A stretch of DNA of 41,259 nucleotides from Candidatus Dormiibacterota bacterium (GTDB lineage: Bacteria > Chloroflexota > Dormibacteria > Dormibacterales > Dormibacteraceae), in assembly GCA_036506195.1 (NCBI GenBank), contig DASXSD010000110.1:1-41259 (forward strand), written 5' to 3'. Below are positions 5,125 to 19,052 of this stretch, one piece after another. The position numbers and the translations under genes are program-made. The stretch's first letter is position 1. Each line of letters starts with the position of its first letter. The notes below the pieces were generated by a model. The model did not search any database. It worked only from the letters and a program-made list of their open reading frames with translations, and was not told the DNA's origin.

Positions 5125-6752
5125 GGCAGGATCCCGACCTTGTAGTCGGCGATGATCTCGTTCGCCGCGCGCAGGCCTTCGGACGCGCCGCCCTCCATGT
5201 AGCCCTGGAAGTCCTGCGAGCAATGCTCGCCGGCGAAGTGGCACTTGCCGGTGGTCGGGTCGGGCTGCCGCGCCTTCTCGTACCCCGCGAACTGCGTGTA
5301 CTGGCCGACTTTCCAGTAGGAGTAGGAACCGAGCAGGTAGGGGTTGGCCAGCGGCACATCGAGCGTCGCGCGGCCGTTCCACTGGTGGGCGATGCCGGGG
5401 AACACGGGCTCGAGCTGGCGCAGGAAGGTGCGCGCGAACTTCGCCACCGTGCTGGGATTTGTCGGATCGCCACCGAACGACGCCAGCGGAACGCCGCCGC
5501 CGGTGTAGCCGACCAGGATTCCCGTCGCGCCGTGCTGACCGCGACTGACATCCCAGGTGTTCTGGTAGCCGGTGTCGGAGTTGGTGCTCCCGTTGCCGAG
5601 GCCCCATGGACCCTGCGTGTTCCAGTAGCGGGTGTCGAACTGGAGGTGGAGCTTGGCGTTCTTGCCGTAGCCGAGCTGGGTGATCGCGGTCTGCTTCAGG
5701 GAGTCGAAGCCGGCTGCGCTGTAGTCGAGCGTCCGCAGCACCGAGAACGGAATCGCGAGGATCACCCGGTCGAAGTTGCTGGTCGTGCTCGTGCCGCCGG
5801 TCGCGAGGGTCAGATCGAAGGTGCCGTCCGCCTTGCGCGCGATCCTCGTCAACGCGGTGTTCAGCTGCACGGTGCCCGGCGCGAGGGCGGCGGCGATCGC
5901 CTTCGGGAGGCGCTCGTTGCCGCCGACGATGTGGTAGCGCTCGTCCGATTTGCCGAAGATCAGGAAGTTTCCAGGCTTGGACGAGAAGCCGAGGAGGTAG
6001 ATGAGGTTCAGAGAGCTCTGCTCCTTGGTGATGTTCCCGTACTCGATGTTGTAGGCGACGTCGAGGAGCTGGCCCATCGAGCTCGAATGGCCGCCAGGGA
6101 CTCGGGTCTCGATCCAGTCGTAGATGCTCATGTTGTCGAGCACCCGGCCGGCGTCTGTGAAGTTGTTGTACAGGGTGGGATAGCTGGCGGCGTTGACGTC
6201 CTTCTTGACGTTGTTCCACACCGGGTTGAAGTCGGCCTGGGCCTCGTCGTCGGTGTAGTAGTCACCGAAGAAGTAGTTGGTGTCGGTCGAGTGGACCGGC
6301 TGGGCGGCGATCAGGTCCGTCGTGGCCAGCTTGAAACGGTTCGCCAGGCCGAGGATCGTCTTGTGACCGCTGTCGATCAGCTCGCCGCAGTGCTCGCTGA
6401 CCTGGCCGTTGAGCCAGGACGTGGTGTCGGAGTGCATGCGGCCACCGACCCGGTTGGAGGCCTCGTAGACGGTCGAGGTGATGCCCGCGTCCTGGAGGGT
6501 GAGCGCTGCGTTGAGACCGGCGATGCCGCCGCCGATGATGGCGATCCGGCCCTGCTGGGTCGACGGCGCAGCAAATGCAGGCACCGGCACGTTCAAGGCC
6601 GCCGCGCCCATGGTGGCGCCGGTGACCTTCAGGAAGTCCCGCCGCGTCAGACGCGCCTTGCGGATCTCGGCGATTGTGCGACCTGATCGCTCGGCGTCTT
6701 CGAAATCGCCGAACAGTTCCTGGAGCCGTCTCAGCAGCGTGCTGCGGGCCAT
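5121..6752 (-). CDS. Tat-exported FAD-dependent amine oxidase family protein
   Basis: Twin-arginine signal LTRRDFLKVTGATMGAAAL...AFA, followed by the dinucleotide fold IAIIGGGIAGLNAAL...YEASNRVGGR and a flavin amine-oxidase-like C-terminus (HFAGEH). ATG at 6752 is preceded by AGGAGG 8 nt upstream and is preferred over the track start 6788. Confidence 0.85.
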   Translation of the reverse strand: MARSTLLRRLQELFGDFEDAERSGRTIAEIRKARLTRRDFLKVTGATMGAAALNVPVPAFAAPSTQQGRIAIIGGGIAGLNAALTLQDAGITSTVYEASNRVGGRMHSDTTSWLNGQVSEHCGELIDSGHKTILGLANRFKLATTDLIAAQPVHSTDTNYFFGDYYTDDEAQADFNPVWNNVKKDVNAASYPTLYNNFTDAGRVLDNMSIYDWIETRVPGGHSSSMGQLLDVAYNIEYGNITKEQSSLNLIYLLGFSSKPGNFLIFGKSDERYHIVGGNERLPKAIAAALAPGTVQLNTALTRIARKADGTFDLTLATGGTSTTSNFDRVILAIPFSVLRTLDYSAAGFDSLKQTAITQLGYGKNAKLHLQFDTRYWNTQGPWGLGNGSTNSDTGYQNTWDVSRGQHGATGILVGYTGGGVPLASFGGDPTNPSTVAKFARTFLRQLEPVFPGIAHQWNGRATLDVPLANPYLLGSYSYWKVGQYTQFAGYEKARQPDPTTGKCHFAGEHCSQDFQGYMEGGASEGLRAANEIIADYKVGILP

Positions 6753-8898: not shown

Positions 8899-8974
8899 TG
8901 GAGCGGGAGACGGGACTCGAACCCGCTACCTCAACCTTGGGAAGGTCGCGCTCTGCCAGGTGAGCTACTCCCGC
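8899..8974 (-). tRNA. tRNA-Gly (anticodon CCC), CCA encoded
   Basis: The reverse complement reads GCGGGAG-TA-GCTC-ACCTGGC-AGAGC-G-CGACC-TTCCCAA-GGTTG-AGGTA-GCGGG-TTCGAGT-CCCGT-CTCCCGC-T-CCA. It forms a complete cloverleaf with a 7-bp acceptor stem, a TTCGAGT T-loop and anticodon loop TT-CCC-AA. Confidence 0.93.
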
Positions 8975-8991: not shown

Positions 8992-11514
8992 TTAGGTTTC
9001 TACGACCGCCTCCGCCTGCGGCGCGGCCTCGACCACCACTGACTTCACGAGCGCCGCATACTCCTCGACCAACCTGTCGGCGTGCACGGGGTCCGTGGTC
9101 GACGCGATGACGTAGTACTCCGGTCGGTCGGCGTCCGGCGCCACCAGCACCCACCCATCGTCAACGAACACCTTCACCCCATCCGTCAGATCGACCCGAT
9201 CTCGCAGGTGCCGCTCCATCATCGTCCGCATCACCCGCCCCTTCACCTCCCAGGGGCAGAACTCGACCGCGGTGCGATGCGTGACAACAGGGATTCGGCT
9301 CCGCAAAGCGCCCAAAGACATCCCCGTCTTCGCCAGCATCTCCAGGACGCGCGCGATCGTGAAGATCGCGTCGAACGAGATCGCGAAGTCGGGCCAGCAG
9401 AAGCCCCCACCCCCATCCGACGCCAGCACCGCTTCCGCGTGCTGCGCCGCGCGCAAGACCGCGCCAGGCGTGAGCTTCGTCGGCACGAACCTGCCGTGCA
9501 ACTGGTCGGCGATCATCGAGAACGCCAGAGATGACGACGCCGGCCCCAGCACCATCCCCGACTTGCCCGTCAACGCAAGCTGCGTCAGCACCGCGAATGC
9601 CTGGTCGTGCGACAGCAGCGTTCCCGTCTCGTCGACGATGAAGCATCGCTCGCCAGGCGTGTCGATGAACACGCCCAGCTTCGCGTTCACCGCGGAGGTG
9701 ATCACCCCCATCTCCTGCAGGTGCGCCTGGAACGTCGCGTCGTCCTGCTCCACAACGACCTCGGCCGGCGCCGCGTTCAGTGGAATCACCGCGCAGTTCA
9801 GCTCGCGCAGCACTTGCGGCAGCACCATCGCCGCCGCACCGTTGTTGTAGTCGATGACAACCTTGAACGCGGCGCCGCGCACGACCTCGAGGTCGATCTT
9901 GGCCAGCATGTCCTCCATGTAGCGCTCGGTCTGCTGGTCGCGCCGCGTGATTCGCCCCATCTCGTAGTGAGACACGCGCCGGATGTCCTCGCGGAAGAAA
10001 AGTCCCTCGAGCTTGCGCTCGCTTCGCTTGTCGATGTCGAGACCGTGATCGTCGAAGATCCGGATGTCCGCGGAGCGCGGGTCGACCGGCGAGGTCTGGA
10101 CGTGGACCGCCGACACGTGATTCCGCCGCGACCAGTAACGAGAGACGGGAGCCGGCAGCACCGAAAGGTCGATGACGCCGCTGCCGGCGGAGATGATGCC
10201 GGACATCAGCGCGCGCCCGATCATCCGCGCGGACCGGGTGTAGTCGCGTGAGAACGCGATCTCCGTCCCCTTGGGTGTCAAGGCGCCGATCGCGGCGCCA
10301 AGCCGCGAAGCGAACTCAGGGGTGATCTCGATGTTGATCAACCCGTTCAGGCCGTACGAGGAAAACAGGCCGCGCTTCCACGAGCCCGCCCAGATGATGG
10401 ATTCGTGCACGACCGCACCCGGCTCCACCTCCTTGTTCGGCCAGATGCGTACGTTGGCGTTGACAGTCGAGCCCGCGCCGATCGTCACACCGCTGCCGAT
10501 GACAGTGCCCTCCTCGAGCAAGCACCCGTTCTTCACCGTCACTGAGCGGCATACGACCGACCCACGCAGGCGGGAGTTCGAGCCCACGTAGCAGTGGTCC
10601 CAGACGATCGAGTTCGAGATCTTGACTCCCGAGTCGATCGTCGTATACGCGCCGATCACCGTCGGCCCATTCACCCATGCGCCGCCCCGCACCTTCGCGC
10701 CCGCGCCGATCAGCGCCGGGCCGTCGATCCGCGCACCGGGGAATACCTCCGCGTCCGGATGGATCCACGTCGCGTCGCCGACGCGATCGCCCGGCAGCTG
10801 GACCTTGACTCTGCCTTCGAGGCAGTCGAAATTCGCCTTCATGTAGGCGGTGTGGCTGCCCACGTCCTCCCAGTAACCGTCGGCGATCCATCCGAAGACG
10901 TGCTCGCCCTCCTTCAGCAGCTTGGGAAAGACGTCACCCGACCAGTCGGTGACCTCATTCGGTCGGAAGAAGTCGAAGACGGCAGGGTCGAGGATGTAGA
11001 TGCCCGTGTTCGCGAGGTCCGAGATGACCTCGCCCCAGCTCGGCTTCTCGATGAAGCGCTGCACGGCACCGCCCTCGTCGACGACGACAACGCCGTACTC
11101 CAGCGGATTGGGCACAGGCTTCAAGACGATGGTCGCGATCGCTTTGCGCTCGCGGTGGAAGCGGGCCGCGGCGCCGAGATCGATGTCCGTCAGAGAGTCG
11201 CCCGAGATGACGACGAACGTTTCGTTGAGCTGCTGGCGCGCGAGCATCACCGATCCCGCGGTGCCCAGCGGCGAGTCCTCGACCGAGTAGGTCAGCGCGA
11301 CACCCTGCTCGGAGCCGTCGCCGAAGTAGTTGCGGATCGACGCGCCCATGTACTGCACCGTCGCTACCACGTCGCGCAGCTGATGGCGGCGCAGGTGAAG
11401 AAGGATGTGGTCCATGATCGGCCGGCCCGCCACCGGCACCAGTGGCTTGGGCAAACTGCTCGTCAAGGGCCGCAGCCGAGAGCCCTCACCGCCTGCCATG
11501 ACGACCGCCTTCAT
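8992..11514 (-). CDS. Bifunctional sugar-1-phosphate nucleotidyltransferase / phosphohexomutase (ManC/GlmU-like N-terminus, LbH middle, PGM/PMM C-terminus)
   Basis: N-terminal MAGGEGSRLRPLTSSLPKPLVPV nucleotidyltransferase motif, hexapeptide-repeat middle region, and a C-terminal alpha-D-phosphohexomutase-like half. 840 aa. An SD (GAGGAAGGA) precedes the ATG at 11514. Confidence 0.85.
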   Translation of the reverse strand: MKAVVMAGGEGSRLRPLTSSLPKPLVPVAGRPIMDHILLHLRRHQLRDVVATVQYMGASIRNYFGDGSEQGVALTYSVEDSPLGTAGSVMLARQQLNETFVVISGDSLTDIDLGAAARFHRERKAIATIVLKPVPNPLEYGVVVVDEGGAVQRFIEKPSWGEVISDLANTGIYILDPAVFDFFRPNEVTDWSGDVFPKLLKEGEHVFGWIADGYWEDVGSHTAYMKANFDCLEGRVKVQLPGDRVGDATWIHPDAEVFPGARIDGPALIGAGAKVRGGAWVNGPTVIGAYTTIDSGVKISNSIVWDHCYVGSNSRLRGSVVCRSVTVKNGCLLEEGTVIGSGVTIGAGSTVNANVRIWPNKEVEPGAVVHESIIWAGSWKRGLFSSYGLNGLINIEITPEFASRLGAAIGALTPKGTEIAFSRDYTRSARMIGRALMSGIISAGSGVIDLSVLPAPVSRYWSRRNHVSAVHVQTSPVDPRSADIRIFDDHGLDIDKRSERKLEGLFFREDIRRVSHYEMGRITRRDQQTERYMEDMLAKIDLEVVRGAAFKVVIDYNNGAAAMVLPQVLRELNCAVIPLNAAPAEVVVEQDDATFQAHLQEMGVITSAVNAKLGVFIDTPGERCFIVDETGTLLSHDQAFAVLTQLALTGKSGMVLGPASSSLAFSMIADQLHGRFVPTKLTPGAVLRAAQHAEAVLASDGGGGFCWPDFAISFDAIFTIARVLEMLAKTGMSLGALRSRIPVVTHRTAVEFCPWEVKGRVMRTMMERHLRDRVDLTDGVKVFVDDGWVLVAPDADRPEYYVIASTTDPVHADRLVEEYAALVKSVVVEAAPQAEAVVET

Positions 11515-11542
11515 CCCATCCTTCCTCTCTAACTAGGATCTT

Positions 11543-13606
11543 ATGCGCGTGTTGGACGAACTAAATCAATTCGCTTACGACCTGCTGTGGACCTGGCAGC
11601 CGCGAATCGAGGCTCTGTTTCGCGCGCTCGACCCCGAGCTATGGAAATCGACCCGCGAAAATCCGGTGCTGCTCATCCAGCAGCTCGGCGAGGAAGGAGT
11701 CCAGAAGGCCTGCGAGCGAGAAGAGGTGCGCCAGGCCTTCGACAGCGCCCGGGCGGCTTACCGCGAGTACTACGACCGCAATCCGAGGTTCATGGACGCG
11801 CAGGCGCCGCTGGCCATCGCGTATTTCTCGCTCGAGTTCGGGCTCTCGGAGTGCTTGCCGATCTACTCGGGCGGCCTTGGGGTCCTGGCGGGCGACCACT
11901 TGAAGGCGACCAGCGACCTCGGGCTTCCCCTGGTCGCGGTCGGACTTCTCTACAAGCAGGGTTTCGGCAGGCAGGAGATCGACGCAAGCGGCCGCCAGGT
12001 CGAGGTCTACTTCGAGAACCGAGGCTCGGACCTGCCCGTGCGCAAGCTCGACGGAGTCGAGGTTGAGGCACCGATAGGCGCGCGCAACGTGCGCATTGCC
12101 GTCTGGCGCGCTCAGGTTGGACGGGTGCCCCTTTTCCTCCTCGACACCGACCTCGAGGCGAACCCCAACGACCTGCGCACCATCACCGACCGCCTCTACG
12201 TGCCGGAACCGGACCGACGACTGCGTCAGGAGATCGTGCTTGGGATCGGCGGTGTCCGGATGCTGCGCGCGCTGGGCCTCGACTCCGGCGTGTTCCACCT
12301 CAACGAGGGACACAGCTTCCTGTGTGCGATCGAGCGCATCCGCGAGCTTCGCGCCTCGCGCCAGATGACACTCGAGGAGGCGCGCCTTGTCGCACGCGCG
12401 GGCATCGTCTTCACGACACACACGCCGATCGCGGCGGGCAGCGACTACTTCGACGCCGGCCTGGTGTGGGATCTGCTCGGGCCGTATCTCACGCAGGTCG
12501 GCATCTCATTCGACCGCTTCATGGACCTCGGCCGCCAGCGGCCCGGTGACCCTCGCGAGCGGTTGTGCACGACGTACGCCGCGCTGCGGCTGGCCGACCA
12601 GTCTGTCGGTGTCAGCCGGCTCCACGGCGCTGTCTCGCGCCGGCTCTGGAAGGACGCGTGGAAAGGACTTCCGGACAGCCAGGTCCCGATCGGATCGGTG
12701 ACCAACGGCGTCCACATGCCGACGTGGGTCGCCCAGGACATCGCGGGCCTGCTCAGCCGGTACGTGGGCCCGGACTGGTGGGACCTGGATCCTGCCGACG
12801 GACGGTGGCATGCGGTCTACGAGATTCCCGCGGCCGAGCTGTGGGCGATCCATGGGGAGCTCAAACGGCGCCTGCTGGAGCTCGTCAAGGAGCGCACCGA
12901 GACTCCGCACGAGATCGACGTGAACGCGCTGACCATTGGGTTCGGCCGGCGATTCGCCCCCTACAAGCGCGCCAACCTTCTGCTCAGAGACCGCCCGCGG
13001 CTGACCAAGCTGCTTCGCAACTCGAGGCGGCCGGTGCAGATCCTGTTCGCGGGCAAGTCGCATCCCGCGGACCAGGCGGGCAAGGACATCGTCGCGGGCA
13101 TCGTCGCGCTGGCGCGCGAGGAGCCTCGCGTCATCTTTCTGAAGGACTACGACATCGCGCTGGCGCGCCACCTCGTCCAGGGTGCAGACGTGTGGTTGAA
13201 CAACCCGCGCCGCTTTCTGGAGGCGAGCGGCACGAGCGGGATGAAGGCCGGCGCGAACGGCGCCATCAACGTCAGTGTCCTCGACGGATGGTGGGACGAG
13301 GCGTACCGGCCGGAGTTCGGATGGGCGATCCCGTCGGGGGCCACCCTCGACCGGCAGGACATCGACGACGTCGCCGAGGCGGAGGGTCTGTACCGGCTGC
13401 TCGAGCGAGAGGTCGTGCCGCTCTATTACACGCGCGATGAGTCAGGCATCCCGCGACGCTGGGTCGAGATGATGAAAGCCTCGATGCGAAACGTCGTCAC
13501 ACAGTTCGCGGCGCGACGGATGGTGATCGACTACTTCAACAGCGCGTACGGGCCCGGCGCGCGCCGGGTCGAACAGCTTCGACTACTACCCGACTGGGGC
13601 GGCTAA
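11543..13606 (+). CDS. glgP: Alpha-glucan (glycogen/maltodextrin) phosphorylase, GT35, short bacterial type
   Basis: FSLEFGLSECLPIYSGGLGVLAGDHLKATSDLGLPLVAVGLLYKQGF and the PLP-lysine region EASGTSGMKAGANGA are diagnostic of alpha-glucan phosphorylases. Confidence 0.9.
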   Translation: MRVLDELNQFAYDLLWTWQPRIEALFRALDPELWKSTRENPVLLIQQLGEEGVQKACEREEVRQAFDSARAAYREYYDRNPRFMDAQAPLAIAYFSLEFGLSECLPIYSGGLGVLAGDHLKATSDLGLPLVAVGLLYKQGFGRQEIDASGRQVEVYFENRGSDLPVRKLDGVEVEAPIGARNVRIAVWRAQVGRVPLFLLDTDLEANPNDLRTITDRLYVPEPDRRLRQEIVLGIGGVRMLRALGLDSGVFHLNEGHSFLCAIERIRELRASRQMTLEEARLVARAGIVFTTHTPIAAGSDYFDAGLVWDLLGPYLTQVGISFDRFMDLGRQRPGDPRERLCTTYAALRLADQSVGVSRLHGAVSRRLWKDAWKGLPDSQVPIGSVTNGVHMPTWVAQDIAGLLSRYVGPDWWDLDPADGRWHAVYEIPAAELWAIHGELKRRLLELVKERTETPHEIDVNALTIGFGRRFAPYKRANLLLRDRPRLTKLLRNSRRPVQILFAGKSHPADQAGKDIVAGIVALAREEPRVIFLKDYDIALARHLVQGADVWLNNPRRFLEASGTSGMKAGANGAINVSVLDGWWDEAYRPEFGWAIPSGATLDRQDIDDVAEAEGLYRLLEREVVPLYYTRDESGIPRRWVEMMKASMRNVVTQFAARRMVIDYFNSAYGPGARRVEQLRLLPDWGG
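13583..13606 (+). repeat. 24-nt direct repeat, outer copy (last 7 codons plus stop of glgP)
   Basis: CTACTACCCGACTGGGGCGGCTAA recurs as CTACTGGCCGACTGGGGCGGCTGA at 13787..13810, matching at 21 of 24 positions. Confidence 0.85.
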
Positions 13607-13786
13607 ACCTATGAGAGGAAACCCGGATGGTTTCCTCTCATCGGCCGGGCGCTGGGCGCCGGGCCTGCTCTCCTCCCGGTATAAGGTTCGGTCTTGACCA
13701 AGTAGCCTTCCACCGTCAACGTCTGGCGACCGAAAGGCATAGTTGCGGCCGACGAGACGTCGGCCGCCAAAGCACGGCCTGGGAGC
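13607..13786 (+). repeat. ~180-nt structured non-coding element, copy E1 (candidate ncRNA or miniature mobile element)
   Basis: Alignable over its full length to the reverse complement of 17488..17666. It contains a perfect 13-bp hairpin (13611..13641: ATGAGAGGAAACC-CGGAT-GGTTTCCTCTCAT), a GC-rich middle hairpin, and a 10-bp hairpin GCGGCCGACG-AGA-CGTCGGCCGC. No conserved reading frame is shared with E2. Confidence 0.7.
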
Positions 13787-13810
13787 CTACTGGCCGACTG
13801 GGGCGGCTGA
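13787..13810 (+). repeat. 24-nt direct repeat, inner copy (its antisense encodes the last codons plus stop of GH57-GlgA)
   Basis: See 13583..13606. Read on the minus strand it gives ...SAAPVGQ-stop. Confidence 0.85.
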
Positions 13811-16800
13811 CGGTTTCTGTCCCGGCTCCGGCGCCTCGACGGGTCCCCGACGCTCGCGGTGGGCTCCGATCGCCGCCCTGTACAACTGCACGTACTTCAA
13901 GGCCGACCGCGACCAGGACACGTCCTCCTGCATGTCGTGCTGCACCAGCCACGCCCATACGTTGGGGTGACGGAACGTCTCGGCGGCCCTGACCACCGCA
14001 GCGAAAAACTGCCAGGGGTCGTACGGCCCAAACCGAAACCCGTTCCCCTTCTGCCCCACCGGGTCGTAGTCGCGGATCGTGTCCGCCAGGCCGCCTGTCG
14101 CACGAACAACGGGGATCGTTCCGTAGCGCAGCGCGATCAGCTGCGCGAGCCCGCCGGGCTCGAACCGCGATGGCATCCACAGCATGTCCGCCCCCGCGTA
14201 GATCCGCTGAGCCAGCGCCGCATCGAAACCAATCGCGACCGCTACCTGCCGCGGCAGCTCCGACGCCCAGCGCCGGAACATGTCCTCGTAGCGCCGGTCG
14301 CCGGTGCCGATGACCACGACCTGGAGTCCCAGCTGCAGGAGCTCGGGCATCGCCTGCTCGATCAGGTCGAAACCTTTCACGTCGTAGAACCGCGACACGA
14401 TTGCGCACAGCGGCTTGTTGGAGTCCTCGAGGCCGAGCTCGACCCGCAAAGCGGCGCGACACAAGGCCTTCGCCTGCGGCGCGTCGGCGGAGTAGTGATG
14501 CGGGATGTTGGGGTCGCGCGCGGGATCGAAGATCTCGTAGTCGATGCCGTTCAGGATCCCGTGCAGCTTGTGCGTGTTTTGCCGTAGCAGCTCGTCCAGG
14601 CCCTCCCCGTACTCCGGCGTCTGGATCTCCGACGCATACCGCTCGCTGACGGTGTTGATCACGTCGGCGAAGTGAATCCCGCGGCCGAGCACGTTGACCA
14701 CGTTGTCGAGGCCGGGGATGCCGAGCCGGATCAGTCCCCACTCCTGCAGACCGGCGAGCATCAGCGCTCCGAACCCGAAGACGCCCTGCGCGGAGAGGTT
14801 GTGGATCGTCAGCGTGGACGCGATGTCCGCGTACGCCTCTCCCTCGTAGACCTGCTCGAGCAGGTTCGGGATCAGTGCGCCGTACCAGTCATGGATGTGC
14901 ATCACGTCGGGGAAGAACTCCAGCGCGGGCAGCATCTCGAGCACGGCGCGGCAGAAATACACCGAGCGTGCATCGTCATCGCCAAAGCCGAACATGCCGT
15001 CGCGGTCGTACAGCTGCGGGCAGTCGACGAAGTAGACAGGGATCTCGCCGAGGCGGCCCTCGAAGATCGTGGCCGGCATCTTCTCCGCTCCGAGGGGGAC
15101 CGCCAGGTGGGTGACCACGGGATGCAGCTCGTAGCGTCCGATGTCGACCTGGCGGTACCTGGGGAGCACGACGCGCACGTCATGCCCCAGGTGCCGGAGC
15201 TCCTTGGAAAGCGCTGCCGCCACGTCGGAGACGCCTCCGAGCTTCGCGAATGGCGCCAGCTCGGCCGTGGCGACGAGAACCTTGAGAGGTGGCGCGTGCT
15301 CGACGTCGATCGCAGGTGCCTGCCCAGGGACGCGGAGGCCGAGCGCACCCGACGGTGGCACCACCTCGATGTCCTTCCCTTCCCTGCTGACGACCAGAGC
15401 AACCTCGAACGCGTCGCCGGGGTGTTTCCCCAGCTCACGGAATGGAATCGCGACCGCGAACGGATCGTCGACGTCCCATCGGCTTTCGGCGATGGCTCTG
15501 GACTGCGACTCGATGACACGGGCGACGGATACCGTCCCGCCCTGAGCGCGTGGCGTGATGCGAACCACATAAGCGGGCTCGAAGCCGAGCTCCGCCAGCG
15601 CGCTCTGAGGCAGCGGCAGATCGACGTCACCGTCGCCGTCGGTGGCGGGCGGTCCCCCGCAGTAGAGCCAGAACTCCATGTTCTGCGCCTCGAGGTCGGA
15701 CCCGGGCCGTGGTGAGTCGATGCGGAAGTAGACGTTCTGTTCGTCGTTGCCGTAGAAGACTCGCTCGACCACCCCGGCAGGTCGGTGCAGGGCGCCAAAC
15801 CCCGACCCCACGAGGTAGTAGCCGGCCTGTGCCCACGCCGGGTCGTGCCGTGACTGCGGACTGATCGAGGCCGCGGGAACCCCGCGCTCGGGCGTCGGTG
15901 CGCGTTTGATGATCGGCTGGTACAGACGGGCAGGCGCGCGAGCGCCCATCAGCTTGTAGACGTTGCGCAGATGCAGCCGGAACTGGTTGTCCCAGATGGG
16001 ATCCATGCCTGAGTCGTGCTTGCGACTGAACCACCAAAACCAGTCGCTGCCCTCGGTGATGAGGATCTCCCGCCATGCAAGCGCCGCCTGCTGCGAATCC
16101 TTGGGGCGCTGCTGCAACTGGGAGTCGAGCCAGTCGCGCGTCTCGGCGAGCAGGTCCCAGGCGACGTTGTGCTCCGGGTCGCCGATCCAGGTGTCGAGGC
16201 TCGCCCCGATCCAGCTTCCGGTGTGCAGGTGGTGGAGCTGCTGCTGCGGCGGGTGCTCGGCGAGAAAGTCCGAAACCGTCGTGGTCACCATGTCCGAGCT
16301 CGCTTCGAGCTCGGTGTAGACGGCGTTGAGGAAGTCGTGGCCATCGCGCGGATAGAACTCCCATGCGTTCTCGCCGTCGAGCGCGATCACGACCAGGAAA
16401 TCGCCATCGCCCTGCGCGTCACCGATGCGGCGCAGCCTTCCCATCAGGTCGCGGGCGGCGTCAACAGAAGACAGCCGCTGGTAGTCGAAGCCGATCACGT
16501 TCGAGAGCTGTGAGTCCCGGAAGACCATCGCCACCGAGCTGCCCTCACGTGCTATCCGCTTGGGCTGGTAGAGATGCTCGTCGCGATTGAAGTGGCCCTC
16601 CAGGGAGCGGGCCAGGACCTCCTCGTCGCTGATCATCCAGTCGAGCTTTGCCTTCTCGGCCAGTCCGATCACGGCCTCGCCGACCGCCATCTCCGACGGC
16701 CACATGCCCTTCGGCCGCCGGCCAAGCATCCGCTCGAACAGCCCCATGCCGAGCTCGATCTGGCGCTCGGCGTCCTCGCGGTGTGAGAAGTGGCGTTCGG

Positions 16801-17482
16801 GCAGCTGAATCTGGGGGTTGGCGCTGCGCGCGGAGTCGACGTGGCAGATCAGCGGAAGGATCGGATGGTAGTAGGGCGAGAAGGTGAGCTCGGCCTGCCC
16901 CCGGTCGGCAACCTCCCGATATTTGGGGATGACGCTGCGTATGCGTTCGAGCTGCGCGGCGAACAGGATCGACTTGTCCTCTTCGCTGAAATCGCGGTCC
17001 TTGCGCTTCAGCTCAGCCAGCCGTGGGTCGGATTCGACCCACACCGGGTCGCACCACGCGAGGTTGAACCACACCTGCACGTCGCGCATGTCCTCGTTGG
17101 TGAACTGCGCGTCCGCGGCGCGCGAGGCAAGCTCCAGATAGCGCGACGACTGCTGGACCCGGAGCGCCCGCGGCGACTCTCGCATCCAGCGCAGCACGAA
17201 CTCCCGCTCTTCCGCCGAGAGGTCGCCGGCCGCCCGCTTGCTCAAGTTCAGGAAGAGATCGACCGACTCCTCCTTGCCGTAGTCCTCGATCTGAGCGAGC
17301 AGCGAAGGCACGAGGTTGAAGGTGGCCCGGATCTTCGGGTAGCCGTCGAGCAGGGCGGGCATCTTGTAGTAGTCCTTGGCCGACCGCAGACGGACCCAGG
17401 GCAGCAGGTACGTGCTGGTGAGATCGTCCTTGTAGTAGGGCTGATGCATGTGCCAGATGAAGGCGATCTGCAGAGGTTTCAT
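13787..17482 (-). CDS. glgA: Fusion protein: N-terminal GH57 alpha-glucan-active domain plus C-terminal GT5 glycogen/starch synthase (GlgA)
   Basis: The N-terminus MKPLQIAFIWHMHQPYY, GMWPSEMAV and IALDGENAWE are GH57 signature regions. From about residue 745, KVLVATAELAPFAKLGGVSDVAAALSKELRHLGHDVRVVLPRY and the rest match GlgA. It is one uninterrupted 1231-codon frame. Confidence 0.85.
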   Translation of the reverse strand: MKPLQIAFIWHMHQPYYKDDLTSTYLLPWVRLRSAKDYYKMPALLDGYPKIRATFNLVPSLLAQIEDYGKEESVDLFLNLSKRAAGDLSAEEREFVLRWMRESPRALRVQQSSRYLELASRAADAQFTNEDMRDVQVWFNLAWCDPVWVESDPRLAELKRKDRDFSEEDKSILFAAQLERIRSVIPKYREVADRGQAELTFSPYYHPILPLICHVDSARSANPQIQLPERHFSHREDAERQIELGMGLFERMLGRRPKGMWPSEMAVGEAVIGLAEKAKLDWMISDEEVLARSLEGHFNRDEHLYQPKRIAREGSSVAMVFRDSQLSNVIGFDYQRLSSVDAARDLMGRLRRIGDAQGDGDFLVVIALDGENAWEFYPRDGHDFLNAVYTELEASSDMVTTTVSDFLAEHPPQQQLHHLHTGSWIGASLDTWIGDPEHNVAWDLLAETRDWLDSQLQQRPKDSQQAALAWREILITEGSDWFWWFSRKHDSGMDPIWDNQFRLHLRNVYKLMGARAPARLYQPIIKRAPTPERGVPAASISPQSRHDPAWAQAGYYLVGSGFGALHRPAGVVERVFYGNDEQNVYFRIDSPRPGSDLEAQNMEFWLYCGGPPATDGDGDVDLPLPQSALAELGFEPAYVVRITPRAQGGTVSVARVIESQSRAIAESRWDVDDPFAVAIPFRELGKHPGDAFEVALVVSREGKDIEVVPPSGALGLRVPGQAPAIDVEHAPPLKVLVATAELAPFAKLGGVSDVAAALSKELRHLGHDVRVVLPRYRQVDIGRYELHPVVTHLAVPLGAEKMPATIFEGRLGEIPVYFVDCPQLYDRDGMFGFGDDDARSVYFCRAVLEMLPALEFFPDVMHIHDWYGALIPNLLEQVYEGEAYADIASTLTIHNLSAQGVFGFGALMLAGLQEWGLIRLGIPGLDNVVNVLGRGIHFADVINTVSERYASEIQTPEYGEGLDELLRQNTHKLHGILNGIDYEIFDPARDPNIPHHYSADAPQAKALCRAALRVELGLEDSNKPLCAIVSRFYDVKGFDLIEQAMPELLQLGLQVVVIGTGDRRYEDMFRRWASELPRQVAVAIGFDAALAQRIYAGADMLWMPSRFEPGGLAQLIALRYGTIPVVRATGGLADTIRDYDPVGQKGNGFRFGPYDPWQFFAAVVRAAETFRHPNVWAWLVQHDMQEDVSWSRSALKYVQLYRAAIGAHRERRGPVEAPEPGQKPSAAPVGQ

Positions 17483-17487
17483 GTGGC
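17440..17487 (-). repeat. 48-nt direct repeat, gene-proximal copy (5 nt upstream plus first 43 nt of GH57-glgA)
   Basis: The sense strand reads GCCACATGAAACCTCTGCAGATCGCCTTCATCTGGCACATGCATCAGC. It is identical to 17667..17714 except for one synonymous position (17471 C versus 17698 A on the plus strand). Confidence 0.9.
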
Positions 17488-17709
17488 GAAGCTGATCTCG
17501 TGGCTATGGCGGCCGAGTTCACCTCGGCCGCAACCCGCATCCCAATTGCGTCGCCCAGCGCCGCATGGGGACACTAATTCGTTAATCCCAACCCCGGGAA
17601 GGTGAGCAGGGCCGCGAGCCGGGCGAGCGGCCCGATGAGCGGAAACCGGAGGTTTCCGCTCATTTAGCTGATGCATGTGCCAGATGAAGGCGATCTGAAG
17701 AGGTTTCAT
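17479..17709 (-). CDS. 76-codon relay/leader ORF created by the duplicated GH57 start and read through element E2
   Basis: It starts at the duplicated ATG (17709), 5 nt after the stop of the upstream glycosyltransferase gene. It has no in-frame stop across E2, and its TGA overlaps the ATG of GH57-glgA as ATGA (17479..17482). Beyond the first 14 codons the sequence is arginine/glycine-rich and not protein-like. Confidence 0.3.
   Translation of the reverse strand: MKPLQIAFIWHMHQLNERKPPVSAHRAARPARGPAHLPGVGINELVSPCGAGRRNWDAGCGRGELGRHSHEISFAT
17488..17666 (-). repeat. ~180-nt structured non-coding element, copy E2 (inverted relative to E1)
   Basis: The reverse complement aligns with E1 block by block: ATGAG.GGAAACC / GGTTTCC.CTCATCGG, CTGCTC.CCT.CCCGG, CTGG.CGAC, GTTGCGGCCGA....TCGGCCGCCA.AGC.AC. 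Its hairpins are 17635..17663 (13 bp) and GCGGCCGAG-GTGAA-CTCGGCCGC. Confidence 0.7.
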
Positions 17710-17714
17710 GTGGC
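17667..17714 (-). repeat. 48-nt direct repeat, distal copy (immediately follows the stop codon of the upstream glycosyltransferase gene)
   Basis: See 17440..17487. Confidence 0.9.
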
Positions 17715-19052
17715 TCAGCTCAATGATCGCAGTGTCCGTATCCGGCTCACCCGTTTGGGCGGCGGAGGGGTCGGCAGCTTCACAGCCTGGCGCTCGGCGG
17801 CGTATTCCACCCTCTGCAGCAGCTGCTCGATCACCTTCTCCCAGACGTAGTCCCGGGCGGTGATCCGACCACGCCTGCGGAGATGTGCGGCGATGCGCGG
17901 CCTCTCCTTCAAGATCGAGAGCTCCGTCACGATCTCGAGCGGGTCGTCAGTCTCCAGGACCAGGGCGTTGCGATACGGCTCGGCGTAGTCCTCGCCGGTC
18001 GAGCCGGTGACGGCGATTCCACCGGCGGCCATGACCTCGAGGCCGACCAGTCCGAACGGCTCGTGGCCGGAGTTCGCGAGCACGGCGTCGGACGCCGCGT
18101 AGAGGACACGGACGAGCGACTCGTCGATGAAGCTGGTCACATTTACCAGGTCGACCCCATTGGCATCGCGCAGCACCGCAGCCAGGCTGGGCGCGTCGGC
18201 GGGTGCCTTCACGCTGCCCACCGCGAGTCCCAGGTGTTCGGCGACGCCCATCACCTCGGCGCCGTGCGGCTCGCGCCCTCCGCGGACGACGAGCTTCACC
18301 TGGCCGCCCCGACGTTTGAGCTCGGCGGCGGCAGTGACCGCCATGAGCCAGCGCTTGTCGGGATCGAAGCGACCGATCTTGAACCAGAGATGGCCGGCGC
18401 CGGCGGCCGCCCTGACTTCACCAACCGCCTGGTGATCCGGCTCGGCGAGCGAGTCGGCTGGAATTCCGTTCGGGATCACGATCGGGTTCTGGGCCCACTC
18501 CCACATGCGGAACTTCATGTAGCGGCTGACGGTCGTCACTGTGCTCGCGAGGTTCAGCGGGGCCCAATCGATGCGGTTGAAGCCATACGTGTTGTTGGCG
18601 TTCCACAGCATGACGACACGGTTGCGCAGGCCTCGGTAATACAGCGTGTCCGAGATGAGCCGCATCGACCATGACGTGTGCCACTCCTCGCCGAGCACGA
18701 CCACGTGCTTGCCCGCTTCGACCGCCGGCGCGATCACCTTGTCGATGAGGCTCGAGGGGAGGCTGTAGTTCCAGTCTCGGATCTTTCCTTCCTCGTCGTC
18801 GTAGACGCCACCGCGGTGCTGGGCGGAGATCCACTGACACCAGCGCCTGAGCTGCAGCCGGCCTCCCTCGAGCGCCTCCTCACCCGGGAGGTCGGGGTCG
18901 CCACAGAAATAGAGGTATGTCGGATAGCCCAGCCGCGCCAGCGAGCGCGACAGCCCCTTGACCCTGACGCCGAGCCCACCGGCCTGGCTGAAGACGTCCG
19001 GCCCTTCGAAGCTGAGAATGACGAAGACAGTCCGGGCCGGGTCCAGATTCAA
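17715..19052 (-). CDS. GT-B fold retaining glycosyltransferase (GT4/GT5-like, glycogen-synthase-like N-terminus)
   Basis: VFVILSFEGPDVFSQAGGLGVRVKGLSRSLARLGY resembles the N-terminal G-rich loop of archaeal-type glycogen synthases and GT4 enzymes, and the C-terminal half has the E-x7-E-like region (HEPFGLVGLEVMAAG). The track ORF extends to 19469 but there overlaps the IMPase gene in another frame. TTG at 19052 overlaps the IMPase stop as TTGA. Confidence 0.75.
   Translation of the reverse strand: MNLDPARTVFVILSFEGPDVFSQAGGLGVRVKGLSRSLARLGYPTYLYFCGDPDLPGEEALEGGRLQLRRWCQWISAQHRGGVYDDEEGKIRDWNYSLPSSLIDKVIAPAVEAGKHVVVLGEEWHTSWSMRLISDTLYYRGLRNRVVMLWNANNTYGFNRIDWAPLNLASTVTTVSRYMKFRMWEWAQNPIVIPNGIPADSLAEPDHQAVGEVRAAAGAGHLWFKIGRFDPDKRWLMAVTAAAELKRRGGQVKLVVRGGREPHGAEVMGVAEHLGLAVGSVKAPADAPSLAAVLRDANGVDLVNVTSFIDESLVRVLYAASDAVLANSGHEPFGLVGLEVMAAGGIAVTGSTGEDYAEPYRNALVLETDDPLEIVTELSILKERPRIAAHLRRRGRITARDYVWEKVIEQLLQRVEYAAERQAVKLPTPPPPKRVSRIRTLRSLS

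Follow-up and report, generated by a model that had tools for sequence, protein, structure and literature searches.

Duplicated ends of the formerly overlapping genes glgP and GH57-glgA flank a mobile hairpin repeat in Candidatus Dormibacterota

Repeats of the REP/BIME-RAYT type and elements derived from IS200/IS605 are not known to duplicate their target on insertion. For MIRUs, we know of no description of flanking gene-end duplications. These mycobacterial intergenic repeats, in the account of Supply et al. from 1997, reportedly lie at gene boundaries in compact, high-GC genomes, where short open reading frames (ORFs) can bridge the stop and the start of the neighbouring genes. Long direct repeats of variable length, 8-514 bp, are described for only two bacterial elements, IS1549 and IS1634, DDE insertion sequences (IS) of the IS1634 family, for which there is no mechanistic model; the usual duplication in this family is of 5-6 bp and AT-rich (PMC2266710). 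In this study we analysed a stretch of 41,259 nucleotides (nt) of a Candidatus Dormibacterota genome (contig DASXSD010000110.1, hereafter the window), in which a non-coding element, E1, lies between the convergent genes glgP and GH57-glgA and is flanked by two copies of a 24-nt sequence that encode the ends of these genes. We slightly favour the interpretation that this repeat is a target duplication, produced by the insertion itself in a single event and kept by selection.

E1 belongs to a family, here called E, which is a non-coding, hairpin-rich, non-autonomous mobile multi-copy repeat, common in one genus of Candidatus Dormibacterota, an uncultured soil phylum, and apparently undescribed; a literature search on repeats in Dormibacterota returned nothing relevant. 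Like IS1549 and IS1634, E has a clean 5-nt duplication and occasionally one of 15-132 nt, but it differs from them in being 170-210 nt long, non-coding and devoid of terminal inverted repeats (TIRs). With miniature inverted-repeat transposable elements it shares a small size, the lack of coding capacity, a high copy number, secondary structure, presence/absence polymorphism in close relatives and target duplications, but it has neither TIRs nor an identified parent IS, and the length of its duplication is not fixed. Its hairpins, its position just past stop codons and between convergent genes, and its occasional tandem arrays recall REP/BIME (RAYT) and the IS200/IS605-derived PATEs; unlike in those systems, no Y1 transposase (PF01797) was found in any of the 31 genomes of the genus, while the same search was positive in 6 of 14 control genomes. 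A likeness to MIRUs may also be drawn, as a 76-codon ORF ending in ATGA would bridge the genes next to a second copy, E2, whereas MIRUs, being tandem units of 40-100 nt, would differ from E in their organisation.

The genome holding the window (G000) is a metagenome-assembled genome (MAG) of 2.42 Mb, with 269 contigs and 67% G+C, and every genome compared is also a MAG. Related genomes are denoted G0xx, loci Lxxx and contigs Cxxx.

Two copies of an ancestral gene overlap

The glgP-type alpha-glucan phosphorylase gene (11543..13606, + strand, 687 aa, Pfam Phosphorylase and DUF3417) ends in RLLPDWGG-TAA. Facing it, an ORF of 1231 aa (13787..17482, - strand) encodes, according to Pfam, a fusion of GH57 with a glycogen synthase (GT5/GT1) and ends in PSAAPVGQ-stop; full-length relatives of this fusion are present in Dormibacterota MAGs. 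The first-pass annotation had claimed a 24-nt duplication around E1, one copy of which encodes the end of glgP and the antisense of the other the end of GH57-glgA, and both the duplication and the two gene ends were recovered. Copy 1, CTACTACCCGACTGGGGCGGCTAA (13583..13606, +), consists of the last seven codons and the stop of glgP, is translated as LLPDWGG-stop, and now serves glgP only. Copy 2, CTACTGGCCGACTGGGGCGGCTGA (13787..13810, -), reads in antisense SAAPVGQ followed by the stop TAG (CTA at 13787-13789), and now serves GH57-glgA only. In antisense, copy 1 reads LAAPVG followed by two stops. The copies are identical at 21 of 24 positions and are spaced by 180 nt (13607-13786), namely the 4 nt ACCT between the glgP stop and E1 (13607..13610, +), the 173-nt E1 core, and the 3 nt AGC between E1 and copy 2 (13784..13786, +), both junctions being read from the sequence.

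The match was evaluated by an ungapped flank-against-flank scan of 64 E copies, with 600 controls made of the left flank of one locus and the right flank of another. The repeat around E1 scored 16, above the 99th percentile (11) and the maximum (13) of the controls, so that the 21/24 match is not due to chance. Moreover, the succession of glgP end, E and second copy was found again in the genomes of 7 other species and on 12 independent metagenome contigs, which makes an assembly artefact very unlikely; the exact left junction of G000 had no match among public metagenome contigs.

It had also been predicted that relatives without E would have overlapping stop codons at this place, a comparison set beforehand as a test. 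Among 41 related genomes, 33 had glgP. In the closest relative, G022 (GlgP 97% identical), the two genes overlap tail to tail by 24 nt, with no repeat and no insert: at the corresponding locus (L040), the glgP stop is at 6173-6175 and the GH57-glgA stop at 6194-6196, so that the stops bound the overlap. The genes are likewise overlapped, without repeat or insert, in G024, G010 and G015 (21 nt in G015). The predicted arrangement therefore exists in these four genomes, with overlaps of 21-24 nt, and its presence in relatives shows that the reconstructed ancestor is real. One less closely related species (L059) also has an overlap; in more remote genera the two genes converge without overlapping, and GlgA ends in ALAD-stop.

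After separation, each copy evolves under the constraint of one gene only. Copy 1 keeps LLPDWGG-stop in 23 of 24 sequences and varies, apart from the stop codon, almost exclusively at third codon positions: in many first copies the ancestral TGA, once locked by an antisense serine codon, is now TAA or TAG. Copy 2 keeps PVG[EQK]-stop in antisense in 24 of 24 sequences, and its sense reading is scrambled, with 18 variants. In G000, both copies have C18 and C21, where G022 has T18 and G21, and the three private changes that distinguish them are all silent in the gene that the respective copy now serves. We also observed that the GH57-GlgA tail PVG[EQ]-stop, the antisense of LLPDWGG of glgP, is conserved after separation in 24 genomes (13790-13810 in the window).

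Element E and its target duplications

The core of E1 (13611..13783, +, from ATGAG to CCTGGG) was delimited by alignment with E2 and other copies, its ends being set by a clean empty-site case. Over its whole length it aligns with E2 (17494..17666, -) in reverse complement, and its fold is far better than those of shuffled sequences on both strands (z-scores of -4.05 and -4.53). The consensus fold of 11 E copies contains three covarying hairpins, located in E1 at 13611-13641 (H1), about 13644-13667 (H2) and 13745-13767 (H3), with pairing kept through two-sided changes in 10 of 34 pairs. E is about 170 nt long, and a longer variant, E-long, about 210 nt. About 20 copies were found in G000, longer variant included, and a covariance-model search over the 31 genomes of the genus detected the family in 30, with 4-31 copies each. 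No TIRs were found in the 11-copy alignment or at 64 junctions: E has a terminal hairpin in 5' and an unrelated tail in 3', and its ends, ATGAG and CGCTGGT, are not inverted repeats of each other. Searching Rfam 15 at the gathering score over the whole window gave one tRNA only, and lowering the threshold to E <= 10 in the E1 region gave chance-level matches only. No intrinsic terminator (hairpin and U-tract) was found on either strand of 13300-14100, the E1 hairpins having no T tails, and a promoter scan likewise gave nothing.

For most of the 64 copies (loci L111-L170), the 5' hairpin begins 2-10 nt past the stop of the gene reading in, a spacing which is kept even where 15-50 nt, native terminator hairpin included, part the 3' end of E from the next gene; the convergent stop often comes after the 3' tail. 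Head-to-tail tandem pairs of E, with a few flank bases repeated per unit, were also seen, as were 5' or 3' fragments joined to native hairpins at short G/C-rich homologies (L118, L139, L168, L169, L160, and contig C218 of G000, 11442-11716).

E2 lies in inverted orientation inside the duplicated 5' end of GH57-glgA, at a site that is empty in G022 (L040). Its flanking repeat measures 48-54 nt, in agreement with an earlier figure of 48 nt, and is 94% identical. The downstream, functional copy (17440..17493, -) carries the real GH57-glgA start, and the upstream one (17667..17720, -) the stop of a GT4 gene together with a duplicated ATG. The latter opens the 76-codon ORF mentioned above (17479..17709, -), which runs through E2 to a TGA overlapping the true GH57-glgA ATG (ATGA), and which may keep translational coupling across the insert.

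The length of E target duplications was estimated in a census that covered 25 genomes and 64 full copies. About 7 of these copies lie between repeats that exceed chance: E2 (48-54 nt), three at glgP/glgA (19-26 nt), L153 (15 nt), L118 (about 13 nt) and L158 (132 nt, perfect). Comparisons with empty sites indicated a duplication of exactly 5 nt (AGCTA) at L126 (empty in G024), 0-4 nt at L114 (empty in G000), 29-34 nt for an E-long copy on contig C226 (empty in G022) and 48-54 nt for E2 (empty in G022). Further repeats, of 18 and 74 nt, were found in more distant species, those of 74 and 132 nt being known from the repeats alone. No clean length could be taken from the remaining empty-site comparisons (C226b, C226c, C70, C40, L113, L154, L119 and L163), which contained diverged spacers, fillers, a triplicated 8-mer or other repeats. 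No sequence motif common to all repeat boundaries was found; at loci other than glgP/glgA, the distance from one edge of the long repeat to a gene boundary is about 0-14 nt. E behaves as though a short duplication were canonical and a very long one occasional. The earlier suggestion that its insertion duplicates long, variable segments fits some copies (about 30, 54, 74 and 132 nt) but describes the exception, since about 7 of 64 copies have such repeats and the clean cases are of 5 and 0-4 nt.

At L158 (G008:C121, a single short-read assembly), the perfect 132-nt direct repeat around one E copy (458-589 / 796-927) spans half of a terminator and the 3' end of a convergent gene, and a further E copy, which is truncated, joins the first repeat via GCCGCC microhomology. 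At the 3' junction of an E-long copy on contig C226 of G000 (about 8900-8925), the target 8-mer GGGGTCAG, single in G022, is tripled in tandem (GGGTCAGT GGGGTCGT GGGGTCAG).

The glgP/glgA junction as a recurrent insertion site

In about 17 further genomes of the same genus, the junction is occupied by an insert with a copy of the same 24-mer on each side. This insert is E in G002, G009, G011, G041, G045 and at L034, a remnant of E in G021 (66 nt) and G001 (28 nt), and the longer variant, in both orientations, in G008 and G016. Arrays of the palindrome GATAGTCCGGACTATC occupy the site in G007, G012, G013, G020, G023 and at L032, a hairpin element of about 100 nt in G003, G017 and G019, and in G014 a 1.16-kb cassette with Phd-like and PIN-like ORFs, as judged from ORF translations alone. 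The 24-mer repeat surrounds junction inserts in more than 25 independent assemblies, and it is not specific to E, since unrelated inserts carry it as well.

The palindromes form a second repeat family, built on GATAGTCCGGACTATC or GATAGTCGCGACTATC and often arranged in arrays, with 46 + 19 matches in G000 at up to 2 mismatches. They are found for instance beside E-long on contig C40 of G000 and at junctions L012, L015, L016, L018, L019 and L032, and in some genomes their GATAG provides the glgP stop codon. As for the cassette of G014 (L008, G014:C8, 3559-4716), it contains on the opposite strand a 91-aa Phd/YefM-like, a 133-aa PIN-like and a 127-aa ORF, the first two of which resemble a type II toxin-antitoxin pair; its flanking 24-nt repeat is longer by about 4 nt.

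In a tree of 74 E copies, based on about 170 nt, the junction copies are scattered: E1 is nearest to copies at other loci and does not group with the junction copies of G002, G009, G011, G041 and G045. This polyphyly implies at least five independent insertions of E at the glgP/glgA site. Empty and occupied junction states are interleaved in the glgP tree. Among more than 35 genomes and contigs, no insert-free tandem of the two copies was found, the smallest spacer being 28 nt.

The similarity between the two copies varies widely. It is nearly complete in G016 (23/24), G041 (25/26), L032 (24/24, around a palindrome element) and G019 (22/24), and falls to 12-16/24 in G003, G017, G023 and G001, a spread which indicates that the duplication recurs. 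Across all pairs, copy 2 does not resemble the copy 1 of its own genome more than that of other genomes (permutation p = 0.49); despite this null result, a single ancient duplication is ruled out by the near-perfect pairs in G016, G019, G041 and L032. Alleles have probably been exchanged too, as the junctions of G003 and G024 differ, with a local dip in identity, in genomes that are 98% identical. Between G000 and G022, identity drops to 72-76% just inside glgA.

The first-pass annotation had further proposed that the duplication was originally longer and that only its selected part stayed recognisable. This was not supported: where the repeat is young and nearly perfect, it measures no more than 24-29 nt (G016, 23/24 plus 3 nt; G041, 25/26; L032, 24/24 plus 4-5 nt). 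In G000, the 14 nt outside the 24-mer are unrelated on either side, although the repeat is only 12% diverged, and this absence of residual similarity indicates that the repeat was never much longer. A random stagger alone would not readily account for repeats of a "just enough" length.

One event or two

In the single-event interpretation, the ancestor had the last eight codons (stops included) of glgP and GH57-glgA on opposite strands of the same 24 nt. When E1 inserted into this overlap, an unusually long stagger would have yielded a 24-nt target-site duplication, one copy on either side of the element, of which the left one keeps the end of glgP and the right one that of GH57-glgA. Since only duplications spanning the whole overlap would spare both proteins, selection would set the minimum length. 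Longer repeats would be lost faster, by repeat-to-repeat deletion across the hairpins, and this survivorship would account for observed repeats that barely exceed 24 nt. Besides the repeat-free overlaps of the four relatives, the at least five independent insertions of E, the recurrent near-perfect repeats, the gene ends kept by the two copies and the precedent of IS1549 and IS1634, two observations in particular support this scheme. First, the 48-54-nt repeat of E2 and the 29-34-nt repeat of E-long are both single-copy in the empty sites of G022, which proves insertion-linked duplication for the E family. Second, in all the long-repeat cases seen (E1, E2, C226a, L047, L041) a few to about 15 nt at most separate the element from the joint of the two copies; such a position is automatic for a target duplication, and improbable if a tandem duplication came first and insertion was random.

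A two-step origin is a serious competitor, to which we give a clearly smaller weight. A tandem duplication of the overlap, of 24-29 nt, would first have arisen by replication slippage, and an element would then have inserted into the new spacer. This spacer would be the only harmless landing site nearby, in which elements with ordinary short duplications replace one another; empty sites would be either ancestral, or revertants formed by repeat-to-repeat deletion or allele exchange. Several observations weigh against a single event, and most of them fit this scenario. At least four unrelated types of insert lie between the same repeat, which is shared by the palindrome arrays, the 100-nt hairpin element, the toxin-antitoxin cassette and the 28-nt remnant, which means that each of these inserts creates duplications of 24 nt or more, or else that the duplication does not depend on what was inserted. 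A long repeat is missing around most E copies, and clean recent insertions have duplicated 5 nt or 0-4 nt, the proven recent insertion at L126 exactly 5 nt. By comparison with the clean AGCTA duplication of that locus, the 4 and 3 nt that separate E1 from the repeats can be read, with the preceding A, as AACCT facing AGCCT (4/5 match), a candidate 5-nt target duplication. Removal of E1 and one 5-nt copy would leave copy 1, AC and copy 2, and the junction would therefore fit a 5-nt duplication inside a pre-existing 26-nt tandem. The E copy of G041 sits in an older 28-nt spacer although the repeats around it are 25/26 identical, and the remnants in G021 (66 nt) and G001 (28 nt) show turnover within the spacer. 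In several genomes copy 1s are alike across genomes, and copy 2s likewise, own-pair closeness being null; the junction difference with an identity dip between G003 and G024 fits allele exchange. The copies of G000 differ from the single copy of G022 about as much as the whole genomes do, so that the duplication could predate their split, G022 having reverted or received another allele. Finally, none of the enzymes sought (IS1634-family transposase, reverse transcriptase, Y1) follows the distribution of E in the 31 genomes. The two-step scenario is itself weakened by the lack of any insert-free tandem among the more than 35 genomes and contigs, where spacers are of 28 nt or more, and by other loci at which E lies exactly at the repeat joint while the sister genome has a single copy and no tandem intermediate. 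It also requires a pair of rare events to have hit the same few bases, and to have done so many times.

It is rather improbable that the junction of E1 (glgP end, E, glgA end) was acquired ready-made, by homologous recombination from another species of the genus, after a duplication that had arisen once or a few times elsewhere. The scattering of junction states over the glgP tree, the loss of identity at the G003/G024 junction and the 72-76% identity just inside glgA between G000 and G022 would agree with such an import, but it accounts for the distribution of the repeat and not for its origin. Junction E copies belong to different subfamilies and have different junction bases, so that several origins would still be required, and the presence of C18 and C21 in both G000 copies (T18 and G21 in G022) fits a duplication within a G000-like sequence. 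As to a fortuitous 24-mer similarity or an artefact of a MAG fragmented into 269 contigs, it is made extremely unlikely by a score beyond all 600 flank-swapped controls, by the same repeat flanking junction inserts in more than 25 independent assemblies, and by the gene-specific substitution patterns of the two copies.

No candidate for a mobilising enzyme emerged. The IS1634-family transposase (NF033559) has matches in only 3 of the 31 genomes, two of them above the cut-off, and G000 is not among these, with the caveat that MAGs often lose IS copies; no E-like sequence was found inside the IS1634-family loci. One such element, L180 (G045:C161), has 22-nt TIRs, CTAGACCGAAGTTCCCCCTTGT, at 270-291 and 2235-2256, the inner part of which, (CA)GGGGGAAC, is common to an arm of the E-long hairpin over a 9-10-mer only. 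An IS1634-family parent of E was rejected, as this match is too weak to use and there is no co-occurrence with E. Six of 31 genomes have a reverse transcriptase (RVT_1), which would allow a SINE-like, target-primed route, and neither G000 nor G022 is among them; this count is subject to MAG incompleteness. G045, which has the most E copies (31), also has 8 reverse-transcriptase matches and 3 full-length matches to IS1634-family transposases.

More speculatively, small structured elements of Dormibacterota without TIRs (E, and perhaps the palindrome and big-hairpin families) might integrate by an undescribed route that duplicates from 5 to more than 130 nt. Combined with selection, this would be a general way to split overlapping gene ends and to put a hairpin module right after stop codons. 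The route might involve an as yet unrecognised enzyme, or a template switch of host replication primed by the hairpins of the element.

Elements such as E break MAG assemblies, and the gene starts and ends that they duplicate are mis-annotated by gene callers. In the E family, target duplications differ greatly in length and can be checked against empty sites. Long variable duplications have been without a mechanistic model since IS1549 and IS1634, and E, which is small, abundant and easily aligned, offers many more events for study. The glgP/glgA locus itself provides a natural series of gene separation in more than 30 genomes, from an overlap, through a duplication with an insert, to copies that drift each under the constraint of one gene.

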